Positions 19,601 through 52,628 of a DNA stretch of 64,000 bases are shown here, one piece after another. Under the pieces are notes generated by a model. That model was not told the origin of the DNA. It was given only the letters and a program-made list of their open reading frames with translations, and ran no database searches. Position numbers and translations under genes: made by a program. The DNA lies in the NCBI GenBank assembly GCA_016188425.1, contig JACPHX010000020.1, positions 1,821-65,820 on the forward strand. Direction: 5' to 3'. Source of the stretch: Candidatus Uhrbacteria bacterium (GTDB lineage Bacteria; Patescibacteriota; Patescibacteriia; UBA9934; GWF2-40-263). The number at the start of each line of letters is the position of its first letter. Within the stretch, counting starts at the first letter, position 1.

Positions 19601-19726
19601 GGGCGCAAGGGGCGCAGGGGGTCCAAGGGGCGCAAGGGGGAAGGCAAGGAACACGGAGTCGGAAGCCCATGCGCGCTTGCGCGCCTATGTTTTTGCGCCT
19701 CTTGGACCCCCTGCGCCCCTTGCGCC
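19601..19726. repeat. CAAGGG-unit structured element, copy B1
   Basis: Left arm of four 9-bp units (CGCAAGGGG CGCAGGGGG TCCAAGGGG CGCAAGGGG), core ...GAACACGGAGTCGGAAGCCCATGCGCGCTTGCGCGCCTATGTT..., right arm the inverted complement (CCCCTTGCGCC). Near-identical to copies at 30671 and 52513. Confidence 0.7.
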
Positions 19727-19750
19727 TGCTCGTGTTACCATGTCCCCACT

Positions 19751-20311
19751 ATGTGGCAATTCTCCGTCGATGGAAAACCAGTCCTCTGCCGGGCGCGGGT
19801 CAGTGCGCGGGCGCGGCATGTGCGCGGGATGGTGCATGCGGACGGGCGGGTGGAGCTTGTGCTTCCAAGGCGGTTTCGGTTGAGCGAGGACGATCTACAC
19901 CGCCTCTTCGCGCAGCATCGGCCGTGGTTTGAGCAGGCCATTCGCCGCTTGCGTCGTGTGCCCAGACAGGCACTGACGCATGGGGAAGAAAGCATGCGGG
20001 TGGTCCGTCAGAGAACGGAGACGATGGTACGCGCGTATCTGGCGGAGCTGGCGCACCGCGTCCGTTTTTCGGTGCATGAGATACGGGTGCGTCCGTACAA
20101 AACCAGGTGGGGATGTTGCCGTTTGGGCGGTCGGCTGTCGTTCCATTATAAATTGTGTCTCCTGCCCCGGCGGTTGGCACAGTATGTCGTCATCCATGAG
20201 GTGTGTCATCTGTTCCATCCCAACCATTCTCCGCGGTTTTGGGCGGAGGTGCGAAAACTGTGTCCAGACGCAGAAGAATGCCGCCGGGCGTTGAGGACGT
20301 ACGTGCCGTAA
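19751..20311 (+). CDS. YgjP/DUF45-like zinc metallopeptidase
   Basis: YVVIHEVCHLFHPNHSPRFW (HExxH...H.xRFW). ATG at 19751 is internal M52 of ORF 19598..20311; the upstream part of that ORF is repeat sequence. Confidence 0.6.
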   Translation: MWQFSVDGKPVLCRARVSARARHVRGMVHADGRVELVLPRRFRLSEDDLHRLFAQHRPWFEQAIRRLRRVPRQALTHGEESMRVVRQRTETMVRAYLAELAHRVRFSVHEIRVRPYKTRWGCCRLGGRLSFHYKLCLLPRRLAQYVVIHEVCHLFHPNHSPRFWAEVRKLCPDAEECRRALRTYVP

Positions 20312-20333
20312 TGTGGTAAACTAGGAATCGATT

Positions 20334-21068
20334 ATGAAACGGAAGGAGGACAAAATACAGGAGACCGTTCTTGGACCCATCTGCCGCATTCCGCTTGCGC
20401 CTGATGAACGCGGCGGAAAACCCGCCCCCGCCCGGATGAACGAAATCACCTGGCGGATTTTTCGTATCATGGCGGAGTTCGTGGAGGGATTCCAGTTCCT
20501 GTCGGAGTTCAGCCGCGAGGTAACCGTTTTCGGTTCGGCGAGGTTTCCGCCAGGCCATCGATGGTATCGCGAAGCGCGCAAGCTGGGCAATCTCCTGGCG
20601 GAAAACGGGTTTACGACCGTGACGGGCGGCGGGCCGGGGATCATGGAGGCGGCAAACCGGGGCGCGTTTGAAAAAGGCGGGGAATCGGTCGGCATCAACA
20701 TTCAGCTTCCGCATGAACAACGGATAAATCCCTACGTCAAAAAAAGCCGGGCATTCTATTATTTTTTCACGCGTAAAGTCATGCTTGCGGCTTCGGCACA
20801 GGCCTATATCTTTTTTCCCGGAGGGTTTGGAACTCTGGATGAGATGTTCGAGATGTTGACCCTGATCCAGACAAAAAAATCGGAAGCAGTCAAGGTGGTG
20901 TTGATAGGATCATCTTTTTGGAACGGTCTTATTGATTGGATGCGCACAAAGCTTGTCGAGGAAGAGCGGACGATCGAGCCGGAAGATTTCGATCTGTTCG
21001 TCGTGGTCGATACGGCGGAAGAGGCGTTGGAGCACATCCGTTATACGGAGGAACGCACGTTTTTTTAA
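20334..21068 (+). CDS. LOG-family protein (cytokinin riboside 5'-monophosphate phosphoribohydrolase-like, TIGR00730)
   Basis: VTGGGPGIMEAANRGA and PGGFGTLDEMFE motifs. Confidence 0.8.
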   Translation: MKRKEDKIQETVLGPICRIPLAPDERGGKPAPARMNEITWRIFRIMAEFVEGFQFLSEFSREVTVFGSARFPPGHRWYREARKLGNLLAENGFTTVTGGGPGIMEAANRGAFEKGGESVGINIQLPHEQRINPYVKKSRAFYYFFTRKVMLAASAQAYIFFPGGFGTLDEMFEMLTLIQTKKSEAVKVVLIGSSFWNGLIDWMRTKLVEEERTIEPEDFDLFVVVDTAEEALEHIRYTEERTFF

Positions 21069-21071
21069 CCT

Positions 21072-51145: not shown

Positions 51146-51454
51146 ATGAAAGCAGTCATTACTACAGGCGGGAAGCAATATCTCGTCAAAGAAGGGCAGA
51201 CGATTACGGTCGAGAAGCTGGAGACGGAAGTGGGCAAGCCATTAGTCTTTGAAGCGCTCATGACCGTGAGCGATACAGACGAAGTCACGCTGGGTACCCC
51301 GGTCGTGAAGTCGGTCAAAGTCACTGCCGAAGTGAAAGAGCATGGCCGCGGGGACAAGATCCTGATCGTCAAATACAAACCAAAAGTCCGCTACCGCCGC
51401 CACATCGGCCACCGCCAGCCGTTTACGAAGTTGCTGATTACGAAGATAGCGTAG
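51146..51454 (+). CDS. rplU: 50S ribosomal protein L21
   Basis: MKAVITTGGKQYLVKEGQTITVEKL...HGRGDKILIVKYKPKVRYRRHIGHRQPFTKL, against E. coli L21 MYAVFQSGGKQHRV...[29 protein letters not shown]. Confidence 0.85.
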   Translation: MKAVITTGGKQYLVKEGQTITVEKLETEVGKPLVFEALMTVSDTDEVTLGTPVVKSVKVTAEVKEHGRGDKILIVKYKPKVRYRRHIGHRQPFTKLLITKIA

Positions 51455-51558
51455 GGGAGAGGGCGGGAGGCGGGGGAACGGGAGGGCAAAAAAAGAACGG
51501 TGTTCCGTTCTTTTTTGTTCCTTGTTTTTGTTTTCCTGCCTCCCGTCCTTCGCCTTTC

Positions 51559-52203
51559 TCACGCCGACCGGCGTCCTCGGAGCGCATCTCCAAGCGTCAC
51601 TTCATCCGCATACTCGATCGAGGCGCCAATCGGCAGGCCTCGCGCGAGGCGGGTGACGCGGCGGCCGAGGGGTTGTCCGGCGGAGCCGGATCCGGCTCCG
51701 CCGGACAGGCGGCGGGCGAGGTAGAGCATCGTTGTTTCGCCCGAGGCTGTGGGGGAGAGGGCGAGGATGACTTCCTCAATGGCCGGTTCGGCCTTGAGAC
51801 GGTCTTCCAGGTCGCGCACATGGAGGACGTCGGGGGTGATGCCTTCGATGGGATTCAGCGTCCCTCCCAGGACAAGATAGTAGCCCTTGAAGACGCCGGT
51901 ATCTTCAAACGTAGCGATGTCACGCGATTCTTCGACTACGCACAATAGTCCTGGAACACGGTTTGGATCGCGACAGATGTCGCAGGGGATAGATTGCGAA
52001 AAAGAAAAACAACGCGGACAAATTTTGATGAGTTCCGCGAGCGACAGGAGGTGGCGCGCGATGCGTTCCGTTTCTTGCCGGGGCTGTTTCAGCAAATGAT
52101 AGACGTACCGCAAGGCAGTCTTGGGGCCAACACCGGGAAGTTGGCCTAAAGCCGAAACCACGTTTTGGATTGGTTCAGGAAAACGTCGCACATCACATGC
52201 CAA
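51559..52203 (-). CDS. recR: recombination protein RecR with an in-frame palindrome insertion
   Basis: PEPIQNVVSALGQLPGVGPKTALRYVYHLL (HhH), C4 zinc finger CPRCFSFSQSIPCDIC, Toprim domain. Insertion [11 protein letters not shown] near the C-terminus. Confidence 0.85.
   Translation of the reverse strand: MACDVRRFPEPIQNVVSALGQLPGVGPKTALRYVYHLLKQPRQETERIARHLLSLAELIKICPRCFSFSQSIPCDICRDPNRVPGLLCVVEESRDIATFEDTGVFKGYYLVLGGTLNPIEGITPDVLHVRDLEDRLKAEPAIEEVILALSPTASGETTMLYLARRLSGGAGSGSAGQPLGRRVTRLARGLPIGASIEYADEVTLGDALRGRRSA
51677..51704. repeat. 28-bp palindrome family, copy in recR
   Basis: CCGGCGGAGCCGGATCCGGCTCCGCCGG. Confidence 0.8.
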
Positions 52204-52495
52204 GATTCTTTAGCATCTCCTGCATTTTCCCGTTGTTCTTCATGTGTTCGGCTATCTTTTTCTGGATGCCTTTGAGGGATTCGCTGATGGCGTCCTTGAC
52301 GCCCGCGGTGAGTTTGTTTTTGTCGTTCATCAAATCGTCCGCGATCTCGACGGAGACGACGTGCATGTTGCCGTTCATGGTGATCTGGACGCGGCCGCCG
52401 GCGCCGGAACCTGTTTCGCTGATTTGTTCCATGGTGCTTTGCATCTGCTTGGCTTGGGAGCGAAGGTCTTTGATGGCTTTGAGTTTGGAGAACAT
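52193..52495 (-). CDS. ybaB: nucleoid-associated protein YbaB/EbfC
   Basis: MFSKLKAIKDLRSQAKQMQSTMEQ...GGRVQITMNGNMHVVSVEIADDLM; start at internal M19 of ORF 52193..52549. Confidence 0.8.
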   Translation of the reverse strand: MFSKLKAIKDLRSQAKQMQSTMEQISETGSGAGGRVQITMNGNMHVVSVEIADDLMNDKNKLTAGVKDAISESLKGIQKKIAEHMKNNGKMQEMLKNLGM

Positions 52496-52512
52496 AGGAG
52501 AGTTAGTTGTTA

Positions 52513-52628
52513 GGGGGCGCAAGGGGAGCAAGTGGTCCAAGGGGCGCAAGGGGAGGAGCAGGGAAAGTCGACGCGCTTACGTGTCTATGTTCTCTGCGCC
52601 CCTTGGACCACTTGCGCCCCTTGCGCCT
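52513..52628. repeat. CAAGGG-unit structured element, copy B3
   Basis: GGGGGCGCAAGGGGAGCAAGTGGTCCAAGGGGCGCAAGGGG...GTCGACGCGCTTACGTGTCTATGTTCTCTGCGCCCCTTGGACCACTTGCGCCCCTTGCGCC. Lies between the dnaB stop and the ybaB start. Confidence 0.7.

Follow-up and report, generated by a model that had tools for sequence, protein, structure and literature searches.

Three similar sequences scattered along one contig of an uncultivated Candidatus Uhrbacteria (CPR) genome raise the question of whether they descend from an anciently conserved function or have been copied from place to place. The DNA analysed here, termed the window, is the whole stretch of 64,000 nt spanning positions 1,821 to 65,820 of the forward strand of contig JACPHX010000020.1, which belongs to a metagenome-assembled genome (GenBank assembly GCA_016188425.1). 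An earlier note on this DNA had described three near-identical copies of about 125 bp, one of them inverted, and had favoured recent transposition or gene conversion over ancient conservation. A copy was found at all three places that it named, with edges shifted by 0 to 3 nt, and these copies were designated B1 to B3:

B1, positions 19601 to 19727, plus strand: full copy, 127 nt
B2, positions 30674 to 30800, minus strand (inverted): full copy, 127 nt, with the most degenerate hairpin (91% complementary)
B3, positions 52515 to 52628, plus strand: shorter copy, 114 nt, from which about 13 nt of the loop are absent

A length of about 125 bp therefore describes B1 and B2 and does not fit B3. The inversion of B2 was borne out, as the pairwise identities (85%, 77%, and 77% over all columns) fell to 68-70% once this copy was flipped. 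The B copies also resemble one another more closely than do the other hairpins of the window, as had been claimed (C1 with C2, 68%; D1 with D2, 58%; B with C, about 60%). "Near-identical" is too strong a term for sequences that are 77-85% identical, or 87-88% over ungapped columns; with a 12-13% difference at aligned positions, plus several indels, the copies do not represent a fresh burst, and the word "recent" finds no support. A B profile searched with nhmmer retrieved exactly three full copies (E values of 4e-32 to 6e-38), a number that covers the 64-kb window. The 15-mer GGTCCAAGGGGCGCA occurred 11 times at up to 2 mismatches, against 0.18 expected, the 20-mer CGCGCTTGCGCGCCTATGTT of the loop 3 times against 0.00 expected, and the B arm motif was confined, within the window, to B1-B3 and the tail of dnaK.

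A feature absent from the earlier note is that each copy forms, end to end, one single long hairpin, whose arms (33-38 bp, 91-97% complementary) extend to the two ends of B as terminal inverted repeats. The arms consist of tandem 9-nt units (GGCGCAAGG / GGTCCAAGG), for which TRF returned a period of 9 with 3.7-4.7 copies per arm, the more degenerate left arm of B2 having only 2.0. Some unit variants are present on both arms of the same copy (CAGGGGG/CCCCCTG in B1, CAAGTGG/CCACTTG in B3). The loop, 37-50 nt long, holds a small GC hairpin followed by CTATGTT. In B1 these parts lie as follows:

5' arm, 19602 to 19639, plus strand
loop, 19640 to 19688, plus strand
3' arm, 19689 to 19726, plus strand
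inner module of the loop, 19671 to 19691, plus strand: hairpin GCGCGC-TT-GCGCGC, then CTATGTT

CGCGCTTGCGCGCCTATGTT is the same in B1 and B2 (30710-30729, minus strand) and matches at 17 of 20 positions in B3 (52572-52591), while the loop outside the inner module is visibly more diverged among the copies. The loop of B3 differs from those of B1 and B2 in that about 13 nt, including GAACACGGA, are missing and ACGTGT replaces GCGCGC. The module of small GC hairpin and CTATGTT gives B its polarity. Predicted fold energies ranged from -85 to -101 kcal/mol as RNA (z scores of -7.7 to -11.6) and from -49 to -58 kcal/mol as DNA. Because the lengths of B1 and B3 differ by 13 nt, a conserved reading frame is ruled out and B is non-coding. 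Several mechanical ORFs run through B1. A conserved G-quadruplex element was also considered and rejected, since the motif (four tracts of at least three G, loops of at most 7 nt) is present in B1 (plus strand) and B2 (minus strand) and missing in B3.

The surroundings of the three copies are the following:

B1 site: begins 4 nt past the T-tract of an intrinsic terminator (stem 19574 to 19589)
B1, 3' side: 24 nt upstream of the start codon (ATG, 19751) of a gene for a YgjP-like metallopeptidase
B2 site: begins 2 nt past the stop codon of a methyltransferase gene (30172 to 30672, plus strand)
B2, minus-strand side: about 5 nt downstream of the terminator (30850 to 30815, plus T-tract) of a convergent gene of 554 aa (30876 to 32540, minus strand)
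B3 site: inside the minus-strand gene row dnaB-ybaB-recR
B3 edges: 3 nt after the dnaB stop codon (52632 to 52634) and 19 nt upstream of the start of ybaB (52495)

All three copies are thus intergenic, in three different gene contexts and in both orientations. B1 and B2 come after terminators in the sense direction, whereas B3, given that the dnaB-ybaB-recR row lies on the minus strand, is antisense to it in polarity, so that the orientation of B is independent of transcription. The dnaB-ybaB spacer measures 136 nt in the window, and subtraction of the 114-nt B3 leaves 22 nt, to be compared with 23, 27, and 28 nt in the relatives L012, L006, and L011, respectively, where the start of ybaB is conserved. 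Comparison of these spacers shows B3 to be a discrete insertion relative to the relatives, the nearest of which has about 77% DnaB identity to the host. This was the clean empty-site comparison among the three sites (1 of 3): the methyltransferase ortholog of a further relative, L048 (51% identity), ends at the same C-terminal residue and is followed by a 107-nt spacer devoid of B, and the B1 site is not syntenic in the relatives, where ygjP is missing upstream of the LOG-family gene. A 650-nt ORF-poor stretch upstream of B1 gave no Pfam or Rfam match. Nor was any B sequence found at the relatives' loci. A search of GTDB representative genomes and JGI metagenomes with the exact 20-mer common to all B copies turned up nothing beyond chance matches in coding sequence, namely in Mycobacterium, a Verrucomicrobiota MAG, and two contigs, and viral contigs contained no B, only single-arm chance matches to a 15-mer, with the loop motif absent. 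The empty spacers and the absence of B from these loci and collections uphold the part of the earlier note that preferred copying to ancient conservation.

The position of the copies at gene ends (B2 and B3 start 2-3 nt past stop codons, B1 and B2 just past terminators) and a fold that is extremely stable on both strands could instead mean that function has preserved B as a cis-acting RNA structure. The 33-38-bp duplex would then act as a block to 3' exonucleases or as an RNase III site, uncoupling or stabilising neighbouring cistrons (dnaB-ybaB, or the methyltransferase mRNA at its 3' end), in the way described for REP of E. coli and ERIC of Yersinia. Two further observations agree with this: the relative L005 has, in the equivalent dnaB-ybaB spacer, a tandem-arm hairpin unrelated to B, and the inner hairpin of B3 still pairs in the B polarity through one G.U and one apparent double change, the latter read by eye and lying outside the pairs counted for covariation. 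Against it, the same spacer has no hairpin in three relatives, and polarity relative to transcription varies. Over 11 hairpins of the window, G.T mismatches are no commoner than A.C mismatches (19 versus 18), leaving no strand-specific wobble signal, and covariation among the three B sequences does not rise above that of shuffles; the changes shared by both arms of B1 and of B3 were accordingly rejected as compensatory evidence, three sequences being too few under the shuffle control. An intrinsic terminator was rejected as well, because neither strand has a U-tract or T-run after the large stem; the small inner hairpin with CTATGTT(T) scores as a weak terminator in B1 and B3 only. A promoter role was dismissed for want of a sigma-70-like promoter in or near any copy. 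At gathering threshold, the Rfam 15 scan of the window reported two tRNAs and nothing else; under relaxed settings B1 matched generic miRNA-precursor hairpin models at 19-45 bits, where thresholds are 68-168, so that a known RNA family was excluded. We consider a retained cis-acting role unlikely.

Based on the above observations, B1 to B3 are probably copies, now diverged, of a dispersed non-coding palindrome specific to this lineage, by analogy a MITE/ERIC/REPIN-like element, that was copied into short intergenic spacers. Copying as such is supported by the sequence comparisons, and B looks like inserted "selfish" palindromic DNA rather than a conserved gene or a regulatory RNA. Nothing points to a dedicated function, and as a side effect a co-transcribed B hairpin, being very stable, may alter mRNA processing or stability. 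The flanks of the three copies (AATTG/TGCTC for B1, ACAGA/CTTCA for B2 in the sense of the element, and GTTAG/TGTTT for B3) share no homology, and the gene conversion that had been offered as an alternative is not needed to account for the data. The earlier note had also proposed a search for target-site duplications at the edges, and no direct repeat was present at any copy, nor any TA or shared target motif, the 5' flanks being merely T-rich. This absence fits systems that leave no target-site duplication, such as HUH/Y1 (IS200/IS605, RAYT) or IS110-type enzymes. B would spread through DNA, most likely by way of a single-stranded or hairpin intermediate processed by an enzyme encoded elsewhere in the genome, for which the asymmetric loop module, the best-conserved part of B, would be the most plausible recognition site. 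The conservation of these 20 nt within a diverging loop could, alternatively, reflect a function rather than recognition by a mobilising enzyme. No transposase with B-matching ends is encoded in the 64-kb window, whose only transposase-like ORFs, a DDE_3 fragment (9717-10355) and an RT fragment, are linked to no B copy; Pfam scans over about 60 window ORFs detected no Y1/RAYT (PF01797) domain, no IS110 domain, and no integrase. An integron attC site was discarded on the last of these grounds, together with the absence by reading of the core-site pair (RYYYAAC ... GTTRRRY) at the ends and the housekeeping nature of the flanking genes (dnaB, ybaB).

Since the source is a metagenome-assembled genome and amplification chimeras can yield palindromes, we asked whether B could be an artefact of assembly or amplification such as a chimeric snap-back. 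This is scarcely credible: the three copies are diverged, sit at unrelated loci, and leave the flanking genes intact, related palindromes lie in frame, as exact multiples of 3, inside conserved genes, and artefacts duplicate local sequence and give no dispersed family. Equally far-fetched is a guide-RNA-like unit akin to the TIGR-Tas stem-loop arrays reported from CPR bacteria, with a palindromic stem and two short spacers in the loop. TIGR systems do occur in Patescibacteria and some of their units are bounded by palindromic stems (PMC12045711), and B is likewise a stem with a 37-50-nt loop. However, the B copies are single, 11-22 kb apart, with no tandem array, a Nop-domain (Tas) protein is absent from the window, and the best-conserved part of the loop sits where spacers ought to vary.

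The regularity of the units, which in both the B and C families combine a constant CAAGGG core with 3 variable bases, and the location of B3 next to dnaB, would also suit a DNA-level binding site, in which inverted arrays of 9-bp boxes serve a nucleoid, partition, or replication protein, or cruciform extrusion. We hold this to be highly improbable, as the elements are missing from equivalent sites in the relatives, the GC skew is uniformly positive, so that neither origin nor terminus lies in the window, the spacing between copies is irregular, and a period of 9 bp does not keep phase with the DNA helix. To our knowledge, the 9-nt units do not match the DnaA-box consensus.

The B copies make up one of several palindromic families in this genome and are part of a larger population of hairpins. 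The window contains 18 long hairpins (at least 16 pairs), against 0-1 in shuffles and 0-2 per 13-21 kb in six relatives, and 11 of these 18 have tandem-unit arms, built from unrelated units with periods of 7, 9, or 10. The features closest to B are:

C1, positions 47233 to 47336, strand not assigned: hairpin of 9-nt units CAAGGG+N3; matches the B profile weakly over its full length (E = 0.018)
C1 site: between the divergent genes 46668 to 47228 (minus strand) and tgt (plus strand)
C2, positions 61528 to 61620, strand not assigned: 68% identical to C1, in opposite orientation; weak match to the B profile (E = 0.1)
C2 site: lies across the stop codon of murB and contributes the final ~30 codons to the convergent ORF 61522 to 63999 (minus strand)
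solo B-type 9-mer array (GGCGCAAGG x2.4), positions 45090 to 45111, plus strand: C-terminal tail of dnaK, inverted partner absent
30-nt palindrome, positions 45112 to 45141: splits the 9-mer array of the dnaK tail in frame at GGCG^CAAGG

By its unit scheme, C1 would be a distant relative of B. The solo array in dnaK corresponds exactly, over 20 nt, to the start of the 5' arm of B1. A 30-nt perfect palindrome is inserted in frame in recR, in a glycosyltransferase gene, and in dnaK; its identical sequence gives RecR and the glycosyltransferase 10 aa each over their orthologs, and a tandem repeat (59712-59779) gives MurC 23 aa. Besides B, the genome carries many hairpins or palindromes that were inserted specifically in this lineage, and some of these insertions lie in frame within essential genes.

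That 11 hairpins share one architecture with unrelated units, that tandem-only arrays without inverted partner exist in murC and in the dnaK tail (the latter with the 9-mer of B itself), and that variants recur on both arms of B1 and of B3, could all be explained if the hairpins were made in place, by slippage expansion followed by an inverted template-switch copy, the likeness of B1 to B3 stemming from a common seed or from ectopic gene conversion. However, the order of the variant units is the same in the three copies, which also have in common a non-repetitive 20-nt loop module found nowhere else in the window, and these two properties require whole-element copying at least once per copy. 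In addition, the flanks offer no homology able to support conversion, and the both-arm changes are, with three sequences, statistically like chance. We judge an origin wholly in place to be distinctly unlikely. Alongside the dispersal of B by copying, the sequence-unrelated hairpins of the same tandem-arm architecture suggest a generating process besides copying; the arms of B themselves probably grew by slippage, after which one arm would have been copied onto the other (quasi-palindrome correction).

At least seven kinds of tandem-arm hairpin, unrelated to one another in sequence and with 7-10-nt units, occur in the 64 kb. It is conceivable, if on the unlikely side, that this CPR lineage has an undescribed way of making and spreading palindromic DNA, namely tandem-arm hairpins and short perfect palindromes without target duplications, of which B would be one family under active copying, with its asymmetric loop module as the handle for a hairpin-specific enzyme. 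The targets may then be intergenic spacers of 20-30 nt and, in frame, the essential genes recR, glycosyltransferase family 4 (MraY/WecA-type), dnaK, and murC. If true, ultra-small genomes would harbour a new class of hairpin DNA, mobile or self-propagating, and B would be more than another MITE. Genomes of CPR/Patescibacteria are very small and gene-dense and are usually said to contain few repeats, and the literature examined held no report of palindromic repeats dispersed through such genomes. A burst of hairpin elements specific to this lineage, taking in the in-frame palindromes in recR, dnaK, and cell-wall genes, would parallel the story of the Rickettsia palindromic elements (RPE) in an unrelated reduced-genome lineage, and would help explain how palindromes come to be tolerated or generated in genomes of this kind, one example being the loss of nucleases that cleave hairpins or suppress template switching. 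On the practical side, such elements would provide strain markers, probably cause breaks in assemblies, and give rise to spurious ORFs.

The sequence of B is new, without a match in Rfam or other databases, while the kind of element, a dispersed palindromic repeat, is already known from other bacteria. ERIC/IRU of Enterobacteriaceae and Yersinia are intergenic imperfect palindromes of about 127 bp; B (114-127 nt) falls in the same size class and is likewise one long hairpin, intergenic, in either orientation, often co-transcribed with flanking genes, and variably present between relatives. B differs from them in having no sequence similarity, in its arms of tandem 9-nt units, and in its CPR host. 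With bacterial MITEs (Correia/NEMIS, RUP, Nezha) B has in common its small size, non-coding nature, terminal inverted repeats, and dispersed intergenic copies, as well as presence/absence variation, seen in the empty dnaB-ybaB sites of L006, L011, and L012; unlike them, it lacks a target-site duplication, the 64-kb window contains no parent IS whose ends match, and about 60% of its length consists of the "TIRs", which are internally repetitive. REP/REPIN elements, mobilised by RAYT (Y1 HUH), also place two inverted arms around a spacer in an extragenic hairpin of roughly 100 nt without target-site duplication, and the small conserved hairpin of B could be the corresponding recognition module. 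Yet in a REPIN each arm, 20-40 nt long, is an imperfect palindrome headed at its 5' end by a conserved GTAG-like tetranucleotide, whereas the arms of B are direct 9-nt tandem units that are not self-complementary, and identity with REPINs was rejected on this ground; the RAYT gene (Y1_Tnp), as given above, had no match among the about 60 ORFs of the window.

RPE, mitochondrial GC clusters, and the organelle palindromes of Volvox offer the case of a reduced genome invaded by palindromic repeats, also in frame in essential genes. The counterpart in the window is the 30-nt palindrome (recR, glycosyltransferase, dnaK) and the murC repeat, not B, whose copies are all intergenic; B is also unrelated to these elements in sequence and differs from them in arm architecture. 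Finally, the short tandemly repeated repetitive (STRR) heptamers of cyanobacteria resemble the window hairpins in their short (7-10 nt) tandem units in intergenic DNA and in the coexistence of several unrelated units per genome, but here each array joins with its own inverted complement into a hairpin, and those of B carry a unique loop module.

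Three-way alignment set the edges of the three copies of the B element, a dispersed hairpin repeat, at the following positions:

19601-19727, plus strand, B1
30674-30800, inverted orientation, B2
52515-52628, plus strand, B3 (114 nt)

The similarity runs from GGGCGCAAGG to CCTTGCGCC(T) and is gone in the flanks. Inspection of the sequence and the alignment located all three copies where the earlier note had seen them, and its claim that one of them (B2) is inverted was borne out, since identity falls to only 68-70% when one partner is flipped. Its wording "near-identical" was an overstatement: global pairwise identity is 85% for B1-B2 and 77% for both B1-B3 and B2-B3 (87-88% when gap columns are left out), and B3 is shorter by 13 nt and lacks the GAACACGGA unit. 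Chance likeness among the copies is excluded; an arm 15-mer has 11 matches in the window vs 0.18 expected, a loop 20-mer has 3 (0.00 expected), and an nhmmer profile of B recovered exactly three full copies (E 4e-32 to 6e-38).

Each copy is a single long hairpin, a point absent from the earlier description, with arms of 33-38 bp that are 91-97% complementary and a loop of 37-50 nt. Folded as RNA, either strand is predicted to reach -85 to -101 kcal/mol (z -7.7 to -11.6); for DNA the figure is -49 to -58 kcal/mol. Every arm consists of tandem 9-nt units (GGCGCAAGG, GGCGCARGG, GGTCCAAGG, GGCGCAAGG), for which TRF reported a period of 9 and 3.7-4.7 copies per arm, with only 2.0 in the more degenerate left arm of B2. 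We consider it very unlikely that B is a protein-binding array, and exceedingly unlikely that it is an artefact or a TIGR-like guide (PMC12045711). The loop is asymmetric: a small hairpin (GCGCGC-TT-GCGCGC) adjoins the 3' arm and is followed by CTATGTT, and this inner module defines the polarity of the element. A 20-mer across the module shows no difference between B1 and B2 and matches at 17/20 positions in B3; the remainder of the loop is far more diverged. As the copies differ in length by 13 nt, they hold no conserved reading frame. Because they share both the unit order and the unique loop module, the element must have been copied as a whole; that the hairpins were generated in place, together with gene conversion, is rather improbable.

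Pfam scans of the window (GC content, 56%) found ordinary housekeeping genes. Upstream of B1 is a canonical terminator, with the element starting 4 nt past its T-tract; downstream, a YgjP-like gene follows after 24 nt. B2 starts 2 nt past the stop codon of a methyltransferase gene and, on the other strand, lies ~5 nt past the terminator of a convergent gene encoding 554 aa. B3 follows the stop codon of dnaB by 3 nt, precedes the start of ybaB by 19 nt and is antisense to this row of genes. The 494-aa DnaB is 100% identical to an NCBI protein of 'Candidatus Uhrbacteria bacterium', the next best database matches being at most 77% identical. Neither a promoter-like site in or near the copies nor a U-tract after the big stem was found for any of the three, and in an Rfam search no family passed its threshold, the sole hits being to generic miRNA-hairpin models. 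An RNA-level function of B has no support: mismatches in 11 hairpins are balanced (G.T 19 vs A.C 18), polarity relative to transcription differs between copies, and the three both-sided pair changes among the three sequences were equalled in 270 of 500 shuffles; so small a set gives the covariation and G.U-asymmetry tests little power. An effect on mRNA processing or stability, plausible as a by-product, is an unlikely explanation of the element. A stretch of ~650 nt upstream of B1 (18920-19575) has no convincing ORF, Pfam match or Rfam match and is closed by a clean intrinsic terminator on the plus strand; it may represent a decayed gene or an RNA gene that has escaped recognition.

A search with a 20-mer common to all B copies, across the JGI metagenome set and 185,579 species-representative genomes, turned up no true relative; its four hits are all chance matches to unrelated sequence, and nothing like the B repeat or hairpin surrounds them. 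B was absent from viral contigs, and a profile search of all the relatives' loci gave no match. The dnaB region was compared in six relatives (DnaB identity, 75-77%). In three of these, 23, 27 and 28 nt separate dnaB from ybaB, vs a spacer of 136 nt in the window, where subtraction of the 114-nt B3 leaves 22 nt; as this fits the three relatives, and the ybaB start is conserved throughout the window and the compared relatives, B3 is a discrete insertion. Another relative has a hairpin-free spacer of 90 nt, and in L005, a relative's locus (GCA_004297215.1; DnaB 77% identical), the spacer is 109 nt and contains a tandem-arm hairpin unrelated to B. At the B2 site, the relative's locus L048 carries a methyltransferase ortholog (51% identity, same C-terminus) followed by a 107-nt spacer. 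Synteny at the B1 site is absent in relatives. Comparison of the same loci in relatives, the check proposed in the earlier note, spoke for copying and insertion, with no B in the three short dnaB-ybaB spacers (23-28 nt) or in the L048 methyltransferase spacer.

Of the initial reading of B as recent transposition and not ancient function, the copying is supported and "recent" is not. Neither a target-site duplication (TSD) at the B edges nor a matching transposase was found in the window, and the edges share no target beyond T-rich 5' flanks. Given this, together with the lack of RNA-level support and the need for copying, we take B, with moderate confidence, to be a non-autonomous, TSD-less, hairpin-forming dispersed repeat. 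Such a repeat would be mobilised in trans, probably through an intermediate that is single-stranded or a hairpin, and its likely recognition site would be the conserved inner hairpin; the arms may have grown by slippage and quasi-palindrome correction. ERIC-type and MITE/REPIN-type intergenic palindromes are nearest to B in form and genomic behaviour, but B departs from MITEs in having no target duplication and from REPs in that its arms are not self-palindromic. Rickettsia RPEs and organellar GC clusters resemble the wider repeat phenomenon around B. We found no report of dispersed palindromic repeats in CPR bacteria in the literature examined. Two fragments of mobile-element type lie side by side where the GC content of the window is lowest (~52%), and no link between them and B was seen:

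9717-10355, minus strand, DDE_3 (IS630-type) transposase fragment
10826-11215, plus strand, reverse-transcriptase (RVT_1) fragment

A perfect 16-bp inverted repeat (9583-9598 / 9681-9696) is located near them.

A 30-nt perfect palindrome, TCCGGCGGAGCCGGATCCGGCTCCGCCGGA, occurs four times in the window:

38596-38625, intergenic
45112-45141, variant, in the dnaK tail
49329-49358, in a glycosyltransferase family 4 gene
51676-51705, in recR

It accounts for exactly 10 extra residues in RecR and in the glycosyltransferase relative to their orthologs, and the three coding copies are all in the same reading frame. The dnaK-tail variant is changed in both arms (GAAGCC/GGCTTC) and interrupts a (GGCGCAAGG)n array at GGCG^CAAGG. 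This palindrome was found neither in the relatives' loci nor in viral contigs. An insertion of 23 residues in MurC, absent from three relatives, consists of (GGAGGTTGGAGGGA)n and coincides with a perfect tandem repeat in murC (59712-59779; GGAGGTTGGAGGGA x4.4). The genome holds several lineage-specific families of inserted repeats, of which B is the best-preserved. A second family of palindromes, CTGTGGCCAAGGGGCATGCCCCTTGGCCACAG, is represented twice: at 28544-28581, in a hypervariable linker of ribonucleotide reductase (RNR), and at 49640-49679, as a perfect 40-nt palindrome in the GT4-DUF192 spacer, where the relatives' genes overlap.

Hairpins of at least 16 pairs number 18 in the window vs 0-1 in shuffles, and the count in six relatives is 0-2 per 13-21 kb. 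In eleven of the 18 the arms are built of tandem units; the periods are 7, 9 or 10, and the sequences are otherwise unrelated. Two distant B-like hairpins, C1 (47233-47336) and C2 (61528-61620), share the CAAGGG+N3 unit scheme with B and match its profile weakly (E 0.018 and 0.1). Others are:

4333-4449, intergenic, period 7
6330-6476, intergenic, period 7
25783-25934, intergenic, period 10
45212-45305, intergenic, period 10
47892-47963, in tgt, 7-nt units
61235-61334, in murB, 7-nt units

The tgt and murB hairpins (units AGCTGGC / CTGCCCG) are 58% alike and lie in coding loops of variable length among orthologs; the four intergenic ones are unrelated in sequence, and each overlaps the upstream stop codon or starts within a few nt of it. 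The exonuclease-RNR spacer is 253 nt in the window vs 68 and 129 nt in relatives. A genome-wide reading, less probable, is that a distinct process generates or spreads hairpins in this ultra-small genome.

All 11 tandem-arm hairpins have the G-rich arm 5' and the C-rich arm 3', which is true on both strands. C2 holds the murB stop codon and, on the other strand, codes for the final ~30 residues of ORF 61522-63999; the ends of two genes have thus apparently been remodelled by the insertion of a hairpin. The L005 locus has tandem-arm hairpins of its own (11472-11571 and 14535-14602, with GGTAG-type and GCCGTTA units), one of them in the spacer that B3 occupies in the window; such an architecture thus also exists outside the window's genome. 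The window has 15 canonical G-quadruplex motifs (at 2476, 6332, 17711, 19600, 25775, 45877, 47233 and 62565, among others) vs 2-7 in Markov simulations; many of them are within hairpin arms, with none in B3. Unlike the GC-rich tandem-arm hairpins in style are an AT-rich 47-nt inverted repeat (ATAATAATCGTGAATAT...; 12909-13009) between an HflX-like GTPase gene and a Fic gene, and a 23-bp near-perfect hairpin (11755-11801) just upstream of the GTPase gene. Within ORF 61522-63999, a (GGAGGGG)n array (62562-62593) and a (CCACCTC)n array (62633-62654) lie 40 nt apart and may form a further coding-region hairpin.
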